Source of the DNA: an uncultured archaeon
GTDB taxonomy: Archaea; Iainarchaeota; Iainarchaeia; Iainarchaeales; JAAZKV01
Length of the DNA stretch: 64,000 bases
Reading direction: 5' to 3'
Assembly (NCBI GenBank): GCA_964619405.1
Contig: CAZUCF010000001.1
Coordinates: 33,633 to 97,632 of the forward strand
Part shown: piece after piece, positions 2,177 through 46,745 of the stretch
Numbering within the stretch: the first letter of the stretch is position 1
Layout: each line of letters opens with the position of its first letter
Translations under genes and position numbers: made by a program
Notes under the pieces: generated by a model
What the model was told of the DNA's origin: nothing
Database searches by the model: none
The model's input: only the letters and a program-made list of their open reading frames with translations

Positions 2177-2971
2177 TTAAACCAAACCAAATTTTCCATT
2201 AGGTAATAAGGATAATATTTCATCGTTAGAAAAAAACAAATTTTTTTCTTCAAATTTTTTTTGTAATTGTTTAGCAAAAACATTTTTTTCTATTTCACCT
2301 TGTTTTAATTCAATTATATGAACACAATTTTTTTTAACTGCACTTAAAGGGCCAGCCATTAACACATTTTCTTTTTGGTTTAAACCAATAGCAATGCTCA
2401 AAGAAGTTTTTTTGAACCAATTTCTTTCACCATAAATCATGAATGCACCAACAGAAAGACTTGTGCCTGTTGGCGCTCTTTTTGAAACTTGCTCTGGTTT
2501 TACTGAATAAGCATCAGCAGTTGATTGCCCTGATTCAAATGCTCTTGAAAAAGTTACCGCAAACTGTGCTGTTTCAACCATGGTTGTTTCTGGAACAAAA
2601 CGAATTTTATTTGTTTTCTCATCTTTTGTTTTTATTATGCAATGGGGTGCACCAAAAACTTCTGCGTGAAAATAAACATCTTCTTTTTTCATATAATTCT
2701 TCACAATTTCTTCATTCATTTTAGCATTTTTTCCACCAACTATCAAGAAATTGTCACTTGAAATAAACCACCTCAATTTTTCAAACCACTTTTTCTTTCT
2801 TTGAATTGATTCTTTTTTTGGAGAAACTTTTTCCAATTTTTTTTTCTGAAATTCAATGGCTTTGTTTATACCAAGAGCTTTTTTACGCATTAACTTTGCT
2901 TTCTCAAAATACATTGTTGCATTTTCTTCCAATGATTTACTTAAATCAATTTCTATTTCCATAAAAAACAC
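2177..2971 (-). CDS. NFACT-R (DUF814) domain protein, short RqcH/Tae2-like
   Basis: A coiled-coil N-terminus is followed by the motif VYFHAEVFGAPHCIIK, which is typical of the NFACT-R/DUF814 RNA-binding domain. The protein is only 264 aa, whereas full-length archaeal NFACT proteins are about 650 aa. Confidence 0.5.
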   Translation of the reverse strand: MFFMEIEIDLSKSLEENATMYFEKAKLMRKKALGINKAIEFQKKKLEKVSPKKESIQRKKKWFEKLRWFISSDNFLIVGGKNAKMNEEIVKNYMKKEDVYFHAEVFGAPHCIIKTKDEKTNKIRFVPETTMVETAQFAVTFSRAFESGQSTADAYSVKPEQVSKRAPTGTSLSVGAFMIYGERNWFKKTSLSIAIGLNQKENVLMAGPLSAVKKNCVHIIELKQGEIEKNVFAKQLQKKFEEKNLFFSNDEILSLLPNGKFGLV

Positions 2972-3076
2972 TTATTCAAAACTTAATAACAAGAAAAACA
3001 ATACATAAAAAACAATTTTAAACAAAATAAAAACTAATTATATTTTTTAAAAAATTATTTGTTTAAAAAATTCAAA

Positions 3077-3628
3077 TTAATCCAATGCTGCTTTCTCTCT
3101 AAGTATTTTTACTATTGAATCTGTTCTTGAACCCCTTTTGAAAGTAGGTTCAGTTAAATAAAAGACTTGCCTATCTTTAACAACATCATAATAATTTGGC
3201 AGTTTTTTTACATATCTTTCTTGCAAATTTTTGTGATAAGACTCAACATCCTTATAAAATTGAGAACTCATAACATTAAAATTACCAGAACCCATTATTG
3301 AACCTAAATGATAAACATGCGGATCACTCTCAACAATTTTTAAATAAGCTTCAATTAAATCCGGTTTAGAAAAATCTAGTTGTAGTAATTCAATTGCTTC
3401 CAACTTGTACTCTAATTTCCAAAAAGCTATTTTTGGCCCGTAACCAACAATAACTTTTTCGTTTTGCAAAAAATCAATTGAACTCTTAATTGTAGCTAAA
3501 TGATATTTGGTTTTTGCCTTTATTCTACGCAAATTTGGTTGTGTAGAACCTTTATCCAAAAGTGCTTTAACAATATTCAAACGAATCTCATCATCAACCC
3601 TCATTTTTTGAGCCAAACCAATCACCAA
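3077..3628 (-). CDS. hypothetical protein
   Basis: 183-aa ORF with coding-like composition. No recognisable motif. Confidence 0.5.
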   Translation of the reverse strand: MVIGLAQKMRVDDEIRLNIVKALLDKGSTQPNLRRIKAKTKYHLATIKSSIDFLQNEKVIVGYGPKIAFWKLEYKLEAIELLQLDFSKPDLIEAYLKIVESDPHVYHLGSIMGSGNFNVMSSQFYKDVESYHKNLQERYVKKLPNYYDVVKDRQVFYLTEPTFKRGSRTDSIVKILREKAALD

Positions 3629-4008
3629 ACACCGAATATAGCCAAAATGACTACTTACTAACTCAAAGTAATATCAAAAGGATTTTAAATGTTATTTTTG
3701 TTACATGAACAAAGTATTAATCCTTATTAATGCGAGAACACTATATTAGAATATTGTAATTGTAGGAGGGGATAACTAAGGGGATTGAAAAAATTTTTGA
3801 GATATTGAATGGGAATTGTGGGCTGGCTCACCAGGCTAACTAATTTTAAGCTCACAGTTTTTATTCAAGGTAAACTAATTTTATTTTAAGAAAAAACTAT
3901 TTAACAATTATTTCTTTCCAGAATTTTTTTGTGGCAATTTATTTTTTGGTTTCAAATTAATTATTAATTATAAAAAATTTCGTTCTTGTTTTTAAAAAGT
4001 ATTCAAAA

Positions 4009-11236: not shown

Positions 11237-12199
11237 ATGGATGACAATAATTTACCATGGGTTGAAAAATACCGTCCAAAAAAAATAAAAGATATTGTGG
11301 GACATGATGATTTAACTAAAAGATTCGCTAGCTATATTATAAAAAAAAGTATTCCTAACCTACTATTTTCTGGTCCAGCAGGAACAGGAAAAACTTCTTC
11401 AAGCATTGCTCTAGCAAAAGAATTATTCAATGATAGTTTTGAACAAAATTTTTTAGAATTAAATGCGAGTGACGACAGAGGAATTGATGTTGTTAGAAAC
11501 ACTATAAAAGATTTTGCTAGAACACTTGCTTTTGACTCGGGATTCAAAATAATTTTTTTAGATGAGTGTGATGCTCTGACAAGTGATGCCCAACAAGCAT
11601 TAAGAAGAACAATGGAAAAATATACTAAAACGTGTAGATTTATTTTGTCATGTAATTATTCTTCAAAAATAATTGAACCATTACAAAGCAGGTGTGTTGT
11701 TTACAGATTTAAACCATTAAATGGAGAAGAAATCAAAAAACAAATAAAAAATATTTCTAATATTGAAAAACTAAAGATAAGTGATGAAGCTTTAGAAGCA
11801 ATAAATTATGTTGCCCAAGGCGATTTGAGAAAAGCTATTAATGTTCTACAAGCAAGCTCAAGCATAAAAGATAGTATTGATGAAGAAACAGTTTATAGTG
11901 TTTCATCGAGAGCAAGACCAGAACAAATACAAGAAATGATTTTGTTTGCATTAGACGGAAAATTTTTGGATGCGAGAAAAAAATTGGATCAATTAATGTA
12001 CGAGCATGGCATGAGTGGTGAAGACATAATAAAACAATTATACAGGGAAACAATGAGTCTTAGTGAAGACAAAATTTCAAATAAAACAAAAATTGAATTA
12101 GTTAATATTATTGGAGAATATGATTTTAGAATGGTTGAAGGGGCAAATGAAAGAATACAATTAGAAGCTTTAATTGCACAGTACTTAAAATTTAAGTGA
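11237..12199 (+). CDS. rfcS: replication factor C small subunit
   Basis: Carries the RFC box II WVEKYRP, the Walker A GPAGTGKTSS, the DEAD-like motif LDECDALT and the sensor SRC motif. It is about 320 aa and intein-free. Confidence 0.9.
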   Translation: MDDNNLPWVEKYRPKKIKDIVGHDDLTKRFASYIIKKSIPNLLFSGPAGTGKTSSSIALAKELFNDSFEQNFLELNASDDRGIDVVRNTIKDFARTLAFDSGFKIIFLDECDALTSDAQQALRRTMEKYTKTCRFILSCNYSSKIIEPLQSRCVVYRFKPLNGEEIKKQIKNISNIEKLKISDEALEAINYVAQGDLRKAINVLQASSSIKDSIDEETVYSVSSRARPEQIQEMILFALDGKFLDARKKLDQLMYEHGMSGEDIIKQLYRETMSLSEDKISNKTKIELVNIIGEYDFRMVEGANERIQLEALIAQYLKFK

Positions 12200-12203
12200 T
12201 TTA

Positions 12204-12572
12204 ATGAGAATTCAAAATCTTTTTTTGACTCAAACAAAAGCAAAAACAATTGCTCAAAGAACGAGTTCAAAACAAATTGAAAGAACAATTAAATTAGAAA
12301 ACAAAGCAAGAAATTTGAATGCAAGATTCAAAAGAAAATCATATTACCGAATAAGAAGAATAGCACAGGGTCTTGAAAATGCTGAACAAAAAAATTCTTT
12401 TATAAAAACTTCAAGGGAAAGTGCCAAACTTATAATGATTGAATGTGAAATTCCAAGAAAACATTGGAGAATTATTCTTGATAAAGTTGAACTTTGGGCA
12501 AAATATAATTTTGCAGGAAATAAAACAAAATTAAAAGAAATTGAGAGAACAATATCTAATAGTATAGGTTAG
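12204..12572 (+). CDS. hypothetical basic protein
   Basis: 122-aa ORF that starts 5 nt after the rfcS stop. No recognisable motif. Confidence 0.35.
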   Translation: MRIQNLFLTQTKAKTIAQRTSSKQIERTIKLENKARNLNARFKRKSYYRIRRIAQGLENAEQKNSFIKTSRESAKLIMIECEIPRKHWRIILDKVELWAKYNFAGNKTKLKEIERTISNSIG

Positions 12573-12926
12573 TTTCTGGCCAAGAAAGAATGGGAAGAAC
12601 TTTCGTAAGTTATTTATCATGGGCTACTGAATCTAATTGGAACAATGTTAGAAAAAATATGAATTAAAACCATTGACTCAATCTTGTTTGATTTTTGAAA
12701 TGATTTATTAGAAAAGATTTTTCATAGATGCAACATAAATAGTTGATGAAATTCAACTTCCAAAAAAGGAAGAAAATATTTCAGTAATAAAAGAGCCAAA
12801 ATAGCGCCCAAAGTTCTTGGACGAAAAGAATTTGTGGATTCTTAAAAATTTTATTAGTAGTCTACAATGGGACCACCGGCATGATACTTCCAAAGTGATT
12901 ATAAAGCTTCGAAAAACAGTTTTATT

Positions 12927-14096
12927 ATGAGTAAATATACTGAAATTCATTTAATTAATTTTCCAAAAAACACTACTATTATGCTTGAAAATAAATTCCG
13001 ACAACAATTTATCAAAAACTTTATTGATTCTTGCAACACATGGAAAAAAGCTGTCGAATATTTGAATAACAAGAGTGGCTTTTATAATGTAAAAACGAAA
13101 ATTGGTGTTGGTTCATTATCACACTGGTTTTATGGAATTGAAAAAACAAGTAAAAAAACCAGAAGAATGTCTTTATGGGCAATCATTGAAATAGCTAAAA
13201 AAAACAACATAAACTTGAAAAAAATAGAACAAAATGTATTAGATATTTGTTCAATCGGAAGAGGAACTTCTGTGAAAGCAAAATTTCCACTTTATTTAAC
13301 CCCTGAGCTTGTATCAATTGCCTTTCATCTTTTCGGAGACGGCTATCTTGCGAAAAAAGGACAACAATCACATTACCGACAAGTAAATCAAGAAGGACTA
13401 AATAATTTCAAACAAAAATTGCTTAACTGTTTTGGCAAATTTAATATTGTTATTTCTGAAAAATCAAAAATTGCTATCCCAAAAGTTCTTAGCGAATTTC
13501 TAAAAGAATATTTAAATCTTGGAAGTTGTTATTGGAACAAGTCAAGAATAAATAAAACCATTAAGAAATTGCCCAAAGAATTCCTGCTTGCTGGTCTAAA
13601 TGCATTCATTGTTGATGAAGGACACATAGGTGAAAGTATTGAAATTTACTCAGGAAACAAATTACTTTTGCAAGATATTAAAGAAATTGCTGAAAAGTTA
13701 GGGTATAATACTTCAAAAATTGATATAAAAATTTACAAAAAAAGCAAGACTTATAGAACAAGAATTTCTACGAAAAATGCTCAACTTTTACTTCAAGATA
13801 TTCAATTGTTATCAAAGAAATTTCCTACTTGTGGACTTGCTCACAAAGAACACTTACTCGAGGAGATTGTAAGACGACAAACTCGAGATTGGAAAACACG
13901 ACCCACTGGAGAAACCAAAGAAAGGATAATAACTTTACTTACCAAGGGCAATATAAATTCTAAGGAACTGCGACTCAAACTAAATATCAGCGGAAGCACA
14001 CTTAGAGAACATCTTATCACATTGGAAGCTCAAAACAAAGTTAAGCGAATTCGACAACCAAATAGTTGTTGTCTTCTTTGGTCAAAAATCAAATAA
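12927..14096 (+). CDS. free-standing LAGLIDADG homing-endonuclease-like protein with C-terminal winged-helix domain
   Basis: Two LAGLIDADG-like motifs (IAFHLFGDGYLA and LAGLNAFIVDEGHIG) sit about 100 aa apart. The C-terminus has an HTH (ELRLKLNISGSTLREHLITLEAQNKVKRI). The upstream 350 bp are compositionally atypical. Confidence 0.55.
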   Translation: MSKYTEIHLINFPKNTTIMLENKFRQQFIKNFIDSCNTWKKAVEYLNNKSGFYNVKTKIGVGSLSHWFYGIEKTSKKTRRMSLWAIIEIAKKNNINLKKIEQNVLDICSIGRGTSVKAKFPLYLTPELVSIAFHLFGDGYLAKKGQQSHYRQVNQEGLNNFKQKLLNCFGKFNIVISEKSKIAIPKVLSEFLKEYLNLGSCYWNKSRINKTIKKLPKEFLLAGLNAFIVDEGHIGESIEIYSGNKLLLQDIKEIAEKLGYNTSKIDIKIYKKSKTYRTRISTKNAQLLLQDIQLLSKKFPTCGLAHKEHLLEEIVRRQTRDWKTRPTGETKERIITLLTKGNINSKELRLKLNISGSTLREHLITLEAQNKVKRIRQPNSCCLLWSKIK

Positions 14097-15323
14097 AGTT
14101 TTTTGTTTGTTATAATAATCCAAAACAACACTTTTTTTCTTCCACTTGTTAATTGGAATTCTGAATTGCTTTCCAATATACTTTAAAGCTAAATCAATTG
14201 TAGAAAATATTTTTGGTTGTTTTTGTAGGGCTGCTTTTGTCGTTTCGCCACACACCCATGAACCAAGTGGCAATTTATACCCTTCTCCAATTTCTCTAAA
14301 AACAATCACCATTGCTTGTTGCTTTTTTGAAAGTAAATATTCTAAAACAGATAATCGCACAGTATAATATGCACCAGTAACTTCATTAGCATAATTTTTT
14401 CGTCCATCAAAGAATTCATAATCATGAAATATTTTAACTTCTTCAAATTTTGAACCAATATTCCAAATACTTCCAGGAACCCATGTCTCCAATTGTTCAA
14501 ATGCCCATGCCTTTGGCAATAAAAGAACAATAAAGTGATTATCAAGATAATTTTCTTCAAAAACCTGTATTGAATCAATCAATGAAAATTCTTTTATTTT
14601 TTCTAAAATATTTTTACCAATATTATCAGTCGTTGCTACTAATGCCCATCTCGTAGGAACAATCTTCCTATCTTTTTTAACACCCAGCGCTCCAGACGAA
14701 AGAATTTTTGCAAGAAAAGAAACAGAAAAACCGTCTTTGAATAAATCAATCAAAGCAGTATTTGATTTTGCATCAACATCAGAAAAAAAGTAATCAACTT
14801 TTTTAGGAATTTTTGTATTCTCATTAAAAGACAATTTATCTAATTCAGCAGATGGCCCCATTGGTGCTGCAAAAGAATCAAATTTTGTTTCATTCTTAGG
14901 AGTTTTTTTTAATGAAACATTTAAATCAATTAATGATTCTGACATAGCAAGTTCTTGAAAATCTAATAATTCATAATTAGGGTTTGAGGCAAGAGACACA
15001 GGCATTGTTTTGTATGAACGAAGTAATGATTCTCTAAAAGAAATTATTTTTTCTTGTGACAAACCAAACCATTCTTCAGGTTTATCAGAAATTGAAGAAA
15101 CCTCTTCAGGCAAAGCGGATAAGGGCGCAACAGCTACTTTGGGATAATTTTGCCATGAAACAAAAAACCCTGGTGGCGTAGCACCAACAAAAGAATTATC
15201 TTTTATTTTAGAAATTATTCGGCTTGAAGAAAAATTTTTTTCTAAAATAGGACATTTTTTTAAACCACAAAGCAACTTACCCTTACACTTAACACATAAC
15301 TCGGGAGAAATCATTTTTACCAA
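14082..15323 (-). CDS. nreA: NreA-like archaeal DNA repair protein (Nre_N/Nre_C, DUF650/651)
   Basis: An N-terminal C4 cluster (CVKCKGKLLCGLKKCP) is typical of the archaeal Nre family. The length of about 410 aa also fits. Confidence 0.5.
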   Translation of the reverse strand: MVKMISPELCVKCKGKLLCGLKKCPILEKNFSSSRIISKIKDNSFVGATPPGFFVSWQNYPKVAVAPLSALPEEVSSISDKPEEWFGLSQEKIISFRESLLRSYKTMPVSLASNPNYELLDFQELAMSESLIDLNVSLKKTPKNETKFDSFAAPMGPSAELDKLSFNENTKIPKKVDYFFSDVDAKSNTALIDLFKDGFSVSFLAKILSSGALGVKKDRKIVPTRWALVATTDNIGKNILEKIKEFSLIDSIQVFEENYLDNHFIVLLLPKAWAFEQLETWVPGSIWNIGSKFEEVKIFHDYEFFDGRKNYANEVTGAYYTVRLSVLEYLLSKKQQAMVIVFREIGEGYKLPLGSWVCGETTKAALQKQPKIFSTIDLALKYIGKQFRIPINKWKKKSVVLDYYNKQKTLFDF

Positions 15324-16857: not shown

Positions 16858-17349
16858 TTGAGGAGTACCTTTTTATTTGTTTTAGTAAACAAGTTAGCTA
16901 TGCCTTTGAAAAGTTTTGTTGATGAAGCAAGAAAAACTAACGCGTTAATGGAAAAAATGAGAAACCAAGAAAATCATTCAAGCGAAAACATTATTGATAT
17001 TAGTGATGGCCAAAACATTCCACAAAAACAATTAGAAAAAATACAAGAACAAAACAAAAGCACTTTTTCTAAACCAATAACACAAAACAAAAATTATAAT
17101 AATTTTGAAAAAAATTATATTAAGAAAAATGAGAATTATAGTTTTCCAAAAACAAATAATGGTTGCACACAAAAAATAGATGAAAGACACAATAATATAA
17201 TAGCAAATATTATACAAAAAAGTAATACCTCAACAGGAAACACTACTTGGGAGAATTGTAAACACAAAAAAGAGTGTAATGGAACAATATATTGCAAAGA
17301 ATTTATGTCATTGTGTGGAAAAGAAAAATGTAATAGGGCAACAAGATAA
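16858..17349 (+). CDS. hypothetical protein with Cys-rich C-terminus
   Basis: The N/K/Q-rich body ends with ENCKHKKECNGTIYCKEFMSLCGKEKC. Confidence 0.4.
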   Translation: MRSTFLFVLVNKLAMPLKSFVDEARKTNALMEKMRNQENHSSENIIDISDGQNIPQKQLEKIQEQNKSTFSKPITQNKNYNNFEKNYIKKNENYSFPKTNNGCTQKIDERHNNIIANIIQKSNTSTGNTTWENCKHKKECNGTIYCKEFMSLCGKEKCNRATR

Positions 17350-17872
17350 AAAAAATAATTCTAATAAAATAAAAAAATAATTCTTTGAAAATTCAAAATT
17401 AAAAAAACTAATTAACACAAATATTATAATAAAATTAAAAAAAAATAAAATTAAAAGTAAAAAGCGTAATAATAAAAATAATTTAATAATTGCAAAAATT
17501 AAAACTGATTAAAAACAAAATAAAAAAACTTAATTATAAAAATCACTTAAAAAAATAAAAAAATTCAAACTAATTAAAATAATTCACAAAAATTAAAATA
17601 AATTAAAAAAATTTAACTAAAAAGATAAAACTACAAATAACTATTCAAATTTAATTTTATGATTATTAAAATTACAAAAAATAGAAAATAATACTATTCA
17701 AAATAATACATCAAAAAACAAGTATTTTTTAAATATATTAAAAACAATAGTTATTTATGAAACACAAAAACAGTGATTTAGCCACTAAGTAGCAAACTAA
17801 TACAACTAATTTTTCATTTTAGTTTTAACAACATTGATTTTAAAGCCTTTTCAAATAATAAAATTCTTGTAA

Positions 17873-46660: not shown

Positions 46661-46745
46661 CGGGCCCGGAGGGAATCGAACCCCCATCTCAAGATCGCTA
46701 CAATAATGCCGAAGTCTTGCCGGTTATCCATTGCCACACGAGCCC
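46661..46745 (-). tRNA. tRNA-Arg(UCG) with a 13-nt intron at the canonical 37/38 position
   Basis: The reverse complement GGGCTCG-TG-...TTCGATT...CGGGCCC-G folds into an acceptor stem (7 bp, one G.U), U8, a D-loop with A14 and GG, the anticodon stem CAAGA/TCTTG and a TPsiC arm GGGGG-TTCGATT-CCCTC. The anticodon loop CUUCGG[13 nt]A gives the anticodon UCG. CCA is not encoded. Confidence 0.65.

Follow-up and report, generated by a model that had tools for sequence, protein, structure and literature searches.

A probable homing-endonuclease cassette with C-terminal replacement of nreA in an Iainarchaeota chromosome

We analyzed a 64,000-nucleotide stretch of DNA from an uncultured archaeon of the Iainarchaeota (contig CAZUCF010000001.1; "the window" denotes the whole of this stretch), in which a free-standing gene for a LAGLIDADG-type protein lies between rfcS and the DNA-repair gene nreA. 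The gene converges on nreA, and comparison with relatives outlines a segment around it that appears foreign and reaches well into nreA. All genomes compared are metagenome-assembled genomes or metagenomic contigs; their loci are numbered L001, L004 and so on. The features of the segment and of its target gene are listed here:

~12723..14645: foreign cassette segment of ~1.9 kb in the 3' part of nreA, delimited by comparison with relatives
12927..14096 (+): LAGLIDADG gene, a free-standing open reading frame (ORF) of 389 amino acids (aa)
14082..15323 (-): nreA, with Pfam Nre_N and Nre_C together spanning the entire protein
14646..15323 (-): native 5' part of nreA, residues 1-226, 90% identical to L013 versus 77% to L001
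14082..14645 (-): cassette-borne substitute 3' module, NreA residues ~227-413, of the type GSWVCGETT...QKTLFDF*
14082..14096 (both strands): 15-nt antisense overlap of the 3' ends of the endonuclease gene and nreA
12662..12722 (-): remnant of the pre-invasion nreA 3' end, the last ~19 codons and the stop, EKSFLINHFKNQTRLSQWF*
12739..12861 (+): decayed small cassette ORF (43-51 aa in relatives), matched by tblastn to the 43-aa ORF of L001 (63% over 41 aa, E 1e-11)
12897..12906 (+): TATA-like GATTATAAAG, a putative archaeal promoter that follows purine-rich CAAAGT and is centred ~25 nt 5' of the ATG

The LAGLIDADG protein and the composition of its gene

The protein consists of an N-terminal helical domain (residues 1-~118), a monomeric double LAGLIDADG core (residues ~122-320) and an ArsR-type winged helix (residues ~328-389). 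Motif 1 is LVSIAFHLFGDGYL (G137-D138-G139; D138 codon at 13338-13340) and motif 2 is LLAGLNAFIVDEGH (D230-E231; E231 codon at 13617-13619). In an alignment of 26 sequences with 36-67% identity, FGDG (G137-D138-G139) and LLAGL..FIVDEG (D230-E231, then G232) are invariant. D138 and E231, the acidic residues that end each LAGLIDADG helix, are unchanged in 26 of 26 homologues. An AlphaFold model computed from this alignment (pLDDT 93.6, pTM 0.88) contains helices at 126-136 and 217-231, with beta strands after each.

Foldseek matched the model to the TliVMA intein endonuclease, I-DmoI, PI-PfuI and PI-SceI with E-values of 1e-4 to 4e-6 and probability 1.00. The I-DmoI match had a TM-score of ~0.6 on the target, and PDB titles among the matches name an E117A variant of I-DmoI. 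Further matches included I-Tsp061I and, likewise with probability 1.00, I-OnuI, and WhiA (3hyi) appeared only at rank 26 (E 1.4e-3). Recognition of the LAGLIDADG fold depended on structure prediction and Foldseek, because sequence searches of solved structures returned the winged helix or spurious matches: the family profile matched ArsR/MarR/Z-alpha structures through the winged helix only, and the single protein gave spurious armadillo-repeat matches only. In Pfam, HTH_5/ArsR was found in 20 of the 26 family members (best E 1.3e-11), and 12 of the 26 matched LAGLIDADG at E<=0.01 (best 6.5e-7). The window protein alone gave weak ArsR/HTH matches and no Hint/intein domains, and WhiA Pfam domains were absent from it and from all 26 members. 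A first-pass annotation of this DNA, made from the letters alone, had proposed two LAGLIDADG-like motifs and a C-terminal winged helix and had named the fold and the catalytic acidic residues as points to check; each is borne out by these results. Judged by its predicted structure, the protein is a LAGLIDADG endonuclease, every testable defining feature being present save for a marginal Pfam score, to which we return below.

Modelled separately (pLDDT 84), the N-terminal domain had no significant match in the PDB and showed a weak resemblance to the helix-turn-helix proteins Aca7 and Cro. This domain and the winged helix probably extend DNA recognition or autoregulate. Upstream of the gene, GATTATAAAG suggests the BRE/TATA promoter of a leaderless or short-leader mRNA; A/T-rich TATA-like elements stand equally distant from the start codon in L001, L044, L004, L005, L008, L009, L057 and L090. 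Note that a 20-aa N-terminal extension called in relatives ("..YSQSDYK..", "QSDYK") was rejected as protein sequence: it is better explained as a conserved BRE/TATA-like DNA element, upstream of the true start, read as protein.

The first-pass annotation had also described a compositionally atypical patch, less A-rich and less biased towards N and K than its flanks. This was not confirmed. Relative to 49 long ORFs of the window, the LAGLIDADG gene has a GC content of 0.302 (z +0.9), a GC3 z-score of +0.9, a sense-strand A content of 0.413 (z 0.0) and an N+K content of 0.211 (z +0.6), the last slightly above the mean rather than below it. Tetranucleotide distances in 1.5-kb windows remain at z -0.5 to +0.6 throughout 11.5-15 kb. 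Thus, composition and k-mers of the cassette region carry no signal of foreign origin (all z < 1), which is expected because the donors would also be low-GC Iainarchaeota. A far stronger deviation than in the region picked by the first-pass annotation is seen at 17300-17750, between a 163-aa ORF and thrS, where the DNA is extremely AT-rich (GC 0.11-0.12).

At Rfam gathering thresholds, the sole match in the window is one tRNA at 46661, with no intron or structured RNA upstream of the LAGLIDADG gene. The earlier statement that the gene is not embedded in a protein host gene is misleading, since the cassette sits in the 3' region of nreA in the sense of a mobile ORF.

Mosaic nreA, empty sites and distribution of the family

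NreA of the window is a mosaic. Compared with L013, the closest element-free relative, identity in sliding windows is 83-97% up to about residue 225 and 30-57% thereafter, and DNA identity falls from 83.9% in codons 1-222 to 60.2% after them. Past residue ~225, the window protein is 53-90% identical to the carriers L001 and L005, and residues 227-413 as a whole are 64-73% identical to element-carrying genomes. With element-free relatives, aa 281-413 share 42-45% identity, and 30-aa windows from about aa 226 lie at 30-67%. All 30 positions fixed differently between carriers and non-carriers fall at residue >=233; at 27 of these, the window agrees with the carriers. Native NreA tails end in ...PLGVWQIRENVRAALKEKPLEF..DLALDFLSKKLTVPIEQYKKKSALIxHFKSQTRLSQWF*, whereas carrier tails read ...PLGSWVCGETTKAA...KWKKKSVVLDYYNKQKTLFDF*. 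These comparisons place the left recombination junction in the conserved segment KKDRKIVPTRW, with residues 1-226 apparently inherited vertically. They likewise indicate that the cassette is inserted into the 3' part of nreA, the foreign patch extending to about 14645 rather than to 14096. The first-pass annotation had placed the insertion between rfcS and nreA. Both genes do flank the element, but the insertion itself is in nreA, after the W356-equivalent codon, and replaces residues ~227-413.

The insert follows the Trp codon of the conserved sequence PLGVW|QIRENV (PLG(V/S)W), ~57 codons 5' of the stop. In the window, the insertion and putative cleavage site corresponds to the W356 codon (14256-14258). 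The insertion point is taken as fixed because no remnant of a native tail in the metagenomic loci passes Nre profile position 350 and because of the junction sequences. The 24 empty alleles share a strongly conserved native junction, TGG|CAAATTAGAGAAAATGT, where carriers have TGG|GTGTGTGGCGAAAC. In L013 and L012 the native junction reads ...TATGTTATCCCGCTCGGAGTT TGG CAAATTCGTGAAAATGTTAGG..., and in the window allele ...CCACTTGGTTCA TGG GTGTGTGGCGAAACGACA...; the native nreA site sequence of L013 is TATGTTATCCCGCTCGGAGTTTGGCAAATTCGTGAAAATGTTAGG.

The displaced native 3' end of nreA is still recognizable upstream of the endonuclease gene. The remnant at 12662..12722 carries the PIP box QTRLSQWF and the stop codon (12664-12666), and forms the 3' end of a 30-aa ORF with a TTG start (12664..12756, -). 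Over 61 nt its DNA is 88.5% identical to the nreA 3' end of L013 and 86% to those of L012 and L015; its protein sequence equals the L013 tail at 16 of 19 positions. To the present nreA tail of the window it has no detectable DNA similarity, with ~8 of 19 residues matching by eye. Native-tail remnants also lie upstream of the endonuclease in many other loci, and L001, L014 and L016 keep 57-60 codons starting with WQIRENV or IRENV. Selection on a micro-protein was rejected as the reason for the conserved upstream PIP box, since each remnant just resembles the native tail of its own lineage in element-free genomes. In L001 (7541-7660, -) the displaced tail is an intact ATG-initiated ORF of 39 aa with a canonical PIP box (QHRLSEWF*) at its end. 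Expression of this ORF as a PCNA-binding peptide is conceivable in principle; judging from element-free genomes, it seems to be no more than a young remnant.

Between the remnant and the endonuclease gene lies the small cassette ORF, which is broken in the window: ATA stands for ATG (12739-12741) and an in-frame TAG follows at 12802-12804. Its frame runs on as a TTG-initiated ORF (12817..12930) whose stop overlaps the endonuclease ATG. The small ORF is kept in L001, L004, L005 and L008, and also beside a second endonuclease family in L014 and L016. It follows the pattern MV...P..EEI..V......PE.LD.RE.W.LEN and has no Pfam or PHROG match. The copies of L001 (7873-8004) and L044 (3816-3935) are 90% identical, the endonucleases of these loci only 63%. 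The upstream stretch 12573..12926, which the first-pass annotation had taken for decayed coding sequence, is indeed that, comprising the nreA-tail remnant on the minus strand and the broken small ORF on the plus strand. The insertion in the window is not fresh, as the remnant has shrunk to 19 codons and the small ORF is disrupted. The endonuclease ORF remains intact, catalytic residues included.

To identify empty sites, species-representative genomes were searched with the window NreA. This yielded 30 Iainarchaeota loci, of which L040 ends inside nreA, leaving 29 informative ones. An uninterrupted native-type tail without a LAGLIDADG ORF within 4 kb was found in 24 of the 29, and in L012, L030, L031, L032 and L034 nreA lies tail-to-tail with rfcS across a gap of ~35-110 nt. 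One locus (on the same contig as L001) has the endonuclease gene, and in two (L014 and L016) its place is taken by another LAGLIDADG ORF that is distantly related. L035 contains neither endonuclease family, and L038, with a distant NreA, has neither tail type and no such ORF.

L012, L013 and L015, all element-free, are the closest relatives of the window by every other gene of the neighbourhood, namely a MiaB-like gene, two membrane proteins, RfcS (81-84%), ThrRS and residues 1-140 of NreA (82-90%). By NreA residues 1-226, the nearest genome is L013 for the window (90%), L014 for L001 (85%), L021/L026/L029/L039 for L004 (87%) and L034 for L005 (93%). The C-terminal parts of NreA in these four carriers are nearest to other carriers (64-78%). 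In the window, L004 and L005, the remnant agrees with the tail of that carrier's nearest element-free relative at 16 of 19, 34 of 37 and 35 of 37 positions, respectively. L001 departs from this simple pairing: its nearest genome, L014, carries the second-family endonuclease, and its remnant is closest to the tails of L041, L036 and L027 (43 of 59). Because the affinities of N-terminal part, C-terminal part and remnant differ in each carrier, sequence comparison shows independent acquisition in at least four host lineages rather than an ancestral gene with many losses. Presence or absence at one defined site and co-conversion incongruent with host relationships, two marks of a homing gene, are both found. 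Some relatives do share the gene and its location, a pattern that the first-pass annotation had set against an insertion; this does not refute one, because the closest relatives lack the gene. In view of the empty sites, the displaced native tail, the chimeric nreA and the four independent invasions, the earlier suggestion of a horizontally acquired selfish element is essentially right.

A search for homologues gave 34 full-length relatives (36-67% identity), unannotated or named "ArsR family transcriptional regulator". In 9 of 9 loci fetched through these homologues (65% to 36% identity), the gene is convergent with nreA and the 3' ends overlap; the upstream neighbour varies (rfcS with or without a HAD hydrolase, ABC ATPase, DUF4145, topoisomerase I). 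A profile search of 1.84 billion representatives retrieved 803 proteins at E<=1e-3, of which 149 reached E<=1e-30; the majority are ~380-400 aa long with full-length matches. A metagenome scan gave 70 loci, 56 of them with >=300 nt downstream of the gene. In 48 of these 56 the gene is convergent with nreA, and in all 48 the two genes overlap at their 3' ends by 4-65 nt (median 17). About 30 of the 70 loci align only to residues ~1-316 of the query and encode a ~330-aa form, seemingly without the winged helix, at the same nreA position. The 8 exceptions among the 56 are the most divergent members, and 6 of them lie at the 3' end of an ELP3-like radical-SAM/GNAT gene, indicating target diversification of a kind typical of homing endonucleases.

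This ELP3-linked branch (33-37% identity) includes L104:3575-6511, L106:977-3761, L111:95-2269, L095, L101, L102 and L103. Three of its members are convergent and overlapping and four lie directly downstream of the gene; no displaced elp3 tail was detected in these loci. In L095 and L101 a reverse-transcriptase (RVT_1) ORF is convergent on the other side. The second LAGLIDADG family at the nreA site is represented by L014:5219-6610 (-; 463 aa) and L016:1255-2580 (-; 441 aa), with the motifs LAGAHAADGT and GFMTFESG and an E-value of 1e-4 against the family profile. The inserts of L014 and L016 combine a third type of substitute tail (GSWLILES...QKRLFDFC*) with the same small ORF and an intact native remnant of 57-60 codons, and carry additional genes as cargo (in L014 one for a LigT-like 2H phosphoesterase, and other ORFs). 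IMG/VR contigs contain no viral relatives of the element and PHROG no match to it, and a viral origin was rejected on these grounds.

Two further features lie upstream of the segment:

11237..12199: rfcS (NCBIfam PRK00440, E 1.6e-142)
12204..12572: ORF122, 122 aa, K/R-rich, in the rfcS-nreA interval

ORF122 has no homologue but an identical one in L011 and occupies the spot of a HAD hydrolase in relatives. A 25-aa ORF that follows it (12590..12667) weakly resembles, in a tblastn match covering 12569..12655 (E 0.002), the C-terminal end of an ORF of 154 aa located at this spot in L005, a hint of a frameshifted gene. BLASTP of ORF122 itself against the L005 ORF gave no match. A decayed HAD hydrolase in 12204..12926 was also considered, such a gene lying between rfcS and the element or nreA in L001, L004 and L013; tblastn found no trace of it. 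Directly upstream of nreA in the element-free L012, a second Nre-family paralogue is present (2286-3707, +; E 8.6e-67 against the NreA profile).

Proposed mechanism and alternative explanations

We propose that ~12723..14645 is very probably a homing-endonuclease cassette, a "mobile ORF with C-terminal replacement", in the chromosome of a member of the Iainarchaeota (DPANN). As far as sequence comparison can tell, the locus fits a homing-endonuclease gene in every respect. D138 and E231 would be the metal-binding catalytic residues of a monomeric LAGLIDADG enzyme, which would cut at or close to TGG|CAAAT in native nreA (conserved TGG|CAAATTAGAGAAAATGT). The break would be repaired from the carrier allele, with the retained native tail as the right homology arm. 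On the left side, the nreA module of the cassette would be too divergent to pair, so that conversion would run back to the conserved KKxRKIVPTRW (residue ~226) and replace residues 227-413. The substitute module with its PIP box (QKTLFDF*) would keep NreA complete, and loss of the target site would render carriers immune. A full substitute with a PIP box would be supplied because NreA needs its C-terminal PIP motif, which in Haloferax is essential for the repair function (PMC4929162). Finally, the last endonuclease codons are antisense to the PIP box (at 14082..14096 the plus strand encodes the endonuclease end ...SKIK* and the minus strand the NreA end ...LFDF*), so that clean deletion of the gene would be costly. 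For the small ORF, extended target recognition or autoregulation are candidate roles, as for the N-terminal domain and the winged helix. A secondary host function beside homing may exist; purifying selection and the winged helix leave room for it.

A bolder version, which we advance tentatively and hold to be doubtful, is that of an active chromosomal gene drive of DPANN archaea. It would swap a ~187-residue module of a PCNA-dependent repair protein, including the PCNA-binding tail, for a divergent allele and would be self-locked antisense to the new PIP box. The small ORF and, in lineages such as L001 where it is still intact, the displaced PIP-box mini-ORF may be expressed accessories, candidate roles being an endonuclease modulator or a PCNA-binding peptide. 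If true, the gene drive would selfishly promote the diversification of repair proteins and of the PCNA interactome, and sister lineages would act likewise at elp3.

Several points weigh against a homing cassette. Cleavage is a predicted activity, and occupied and empty alleles are known from separate genomes. For the window protein, Pfam LAGLIDADG_3 scores 21.9 bits against a gathering threshold of 22.5 (E 2e-4), covering the second repeat only. The endonucleases of the four carrier lineages are 52-65% identical with saturated synonymous sites. Because the elements have thus diverged about as much as their hosts, their spread was old or slow rather than a recent sweep. Long-lasting intact ORFs are unusual for a purely selfish endonuclease unless re-invasion is regular, and no degenerate endonuclease copies were seen in searches that were partly biased towards intact copies. 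The window copy, having lost the small ORF, may no longer be mobile, and element-free genomes could hold copies elsewhere. In L035 (3965-5679), NreA has a cassette-like tail (GNWVCGET...QKNLFDYC*), with neither endonuclease nor native remnant and with a 146-aa ORF filling the gap to rfcS. This may be an "immune" allele left after loss of the gene, or a lineage in which the substitute module is native.

The long persistence of intact genes could also mean that the endonuclease was domesticated, the second option named in the first-pass annotation: a LAGLIDADG protein with a winged helix-turn-helix would have been co-opted after an old invasion as a WhiA-like regulator or a repair partner of NreA and kept for that function. 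Purifying selection on intact ORFs over deeply diverged lineages (dN/dS 0.10-0.17 between endonuclease copies, dS saturated), the very large family of 803 representatives, the constant linkage to a DNA-repair gene without degenerate copies being seen, and the order of N-terminal domain, LAGLIDADG core and helix-turn-helix, which resembles WhiA (3hyi), are all in line with this idea. WhiA, however, is inherited vertically, and both catalytic acidic residues are invariant in the present family, unlike in WhiA and maturases. The best structural matches are true homing endonucleases rather than WhiA, none of whose Pfam domains was found. Moreover, the closest relatives of each carrier are without the gene and thrive on native nreA, and so patchy a distribution argues for a nuclease that homes. 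Regulation by the winged helix cannot be the common function, because ~30 of the 70 metagenomic loci seem to lack this domain yet occupy the same nreA position. We consider domestication unlikely.

Alternatively, mobility might come from something other than the endonuclease, such as a small integrative element or a recombination hotspot exchanging nreA 3' modules. The LAGLIDADG protein would then be a mere passenger, perhaps an addiction or defence nuclease partnered by the small ORF. It is true that the small ORF is common to two distant endonuclease families at the same site and is far better conserved between L001 and L044 than the endonucleases (90% versus 63%), and that the L014 and L016 inserts hold extra cargo. 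Against this, the 1.9-kb segment contains no integrase, transposase or terminal repeats, and the LAGLIDADG protein, with its intact active site, is the only conserved enzyme in all copies. There were no matches to PADLOC-type or phage families (none among PHROGs) and none in viral contigs, and the architecture is that of endonuclease-driven mobile ORFs (PMC3630166). This makes a passenger role very improbable. An ancestral pair of LAGLIDADG gene and cassette-type nreA, lost in most lineages without any horizontal insertion, would agree with the gene, locus and native composition shared by several relatives and with elements as diverged as their hosts, but is scarcely conceivable: loss can make neither a native-tail remnant past the gene nor its match to the nearest element-free relative, the sharp nreA mosaic would be unexplained (90% falling to ~30-67%, and to 42-45% for aa 281-413, against the same relative), and a different 187-residue module would have to be restored exactly and independently many times.

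Significance and comparison with known systems

The homing-cassette reading would explain a recurrent mis-annotation, as the large family (803 cluster representatives) is mostly called "hypothetical" or "ArsR regulator". The loci also show that, among ultra-small archaea, a DNA-repair gene is exchanged horizontally and has its domains swapped. The predicted natural target of ~20-40 bp and the immune allele make the activity directly testable, and monomeric LAGLIDADG scaffolds with winged-helix and N-terminal modules could interest those who engineer meganucleases. With two endonuclease lineages at one site and a sister branch at elp3, the family would allow target switching and the life cycle of homing endonucleases to be studied in uncultivated archaea.

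With I-DmoI, an rRNA-intron enzyme, and the intein endonucleases PI-PfuI and TliVMA, the window protein shares the monomeric two-motif fold. Like I-DmoI, whose catalytic pair we take to be D21/E117, it has an Asp in the first motif and a Glu in the second. In contrast to these enzymes, with which its sequence identity is only 16-23%, it is associated with no intron or intein, has its own start codon and a promoter-like element, and includes ~200 extra residues in flanking domains of DNA-binding type. WhiA (DUF199; PDB 3hyi) has the same order of N-terminal domain, two LAGLIDADG repeats and C-terminal helix-turn-helix, but is a bacterial transcription factor on a degenerate LAGLIDADG scaffold that has lost the catalytic residues (PMC3384342). 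Here, both acidic residues are kept, WhiA Pfam domains are absent, and presence/absence polymorphism comes with insertion scars. Thus, the endonuclease is neither intron- or intein-borne nor a domesticated factor of the WhiA type.

The Seg and Mob endonucleases of phage T4, which perform "intronless homing" (PMC3943268, PMC2790892), are likewise free-standing, combine modular nuclease and helix-turn-helix-type DNA-binding domains, and move with flanking DNA by double-strand-break repair and co-conversion. They differ in being GIY-YIG or HNH enzymes that are intergenic and cut away from the insertion site, whereas here the enzyme is of the LAGLIDADG type and part of the target gene is replaced. 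The reviews consulted treat archaeal LAGLIDADG enzymes as passengers of rRNA introns or inteins (PMC3943268, PMC2602781), and in the literature on free-standing LAGLIDADG or homing endonucleases in archaea, on DPANN and on NreA we found no description of the present system.

Replacement of a C-terminus by a mobile endonuclease gene has so far been documented in fungal mitochondria; here, free-standing cassettes in archaeal chromosomes would do the same. In fungi, mobile endonuclease ORFs (mORFs) make gene hybrids of atp6, atp9, cox2 and nad3 in Glomus sp., atp9 in Rhizopus and cox2 in Mortierella (PMC3630166); atp6 of Allomyces macrogynus is a case cited there (Paquin et al. 1994, cited in PMC3630166). 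There, the native C-terminus is displaced by an inserted foreign one together with an endonuclease ORF, and the displaced sequence remains most similar to the C-terminus of a near relative (PMC3630166). As in these systems, a free-standing ORF, in fungi mostly of the LAGLIDADG type, lies near the 3' end of a protein gene, a foreign and divergent C-terminal segment completes the host gene, and the native C-terminus persists past the insert, much nearer to the tail of the relative than to the inserted tail. The corresponding figures are 88.5% DNA identity to L013 here and 91-98% versus 64-81% in Glomus (PMC3630166). Unlike the fungal ORF, which lies downstream of an organelle gene and often in phase with it, the archaeal ORF is on the opposite strand, convergent and overlapping, in a chromosome, and its target is a PCNA-binding repair gene. 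A module of ~187 codons is replaced, against ~57 native codons left behind, and the enzyme has an additional N-terminal domain and a winged helix. The archaeal cassette departs from the fungal mORFs in four ways, namely host, strand, domain additions and length of the replaced module.

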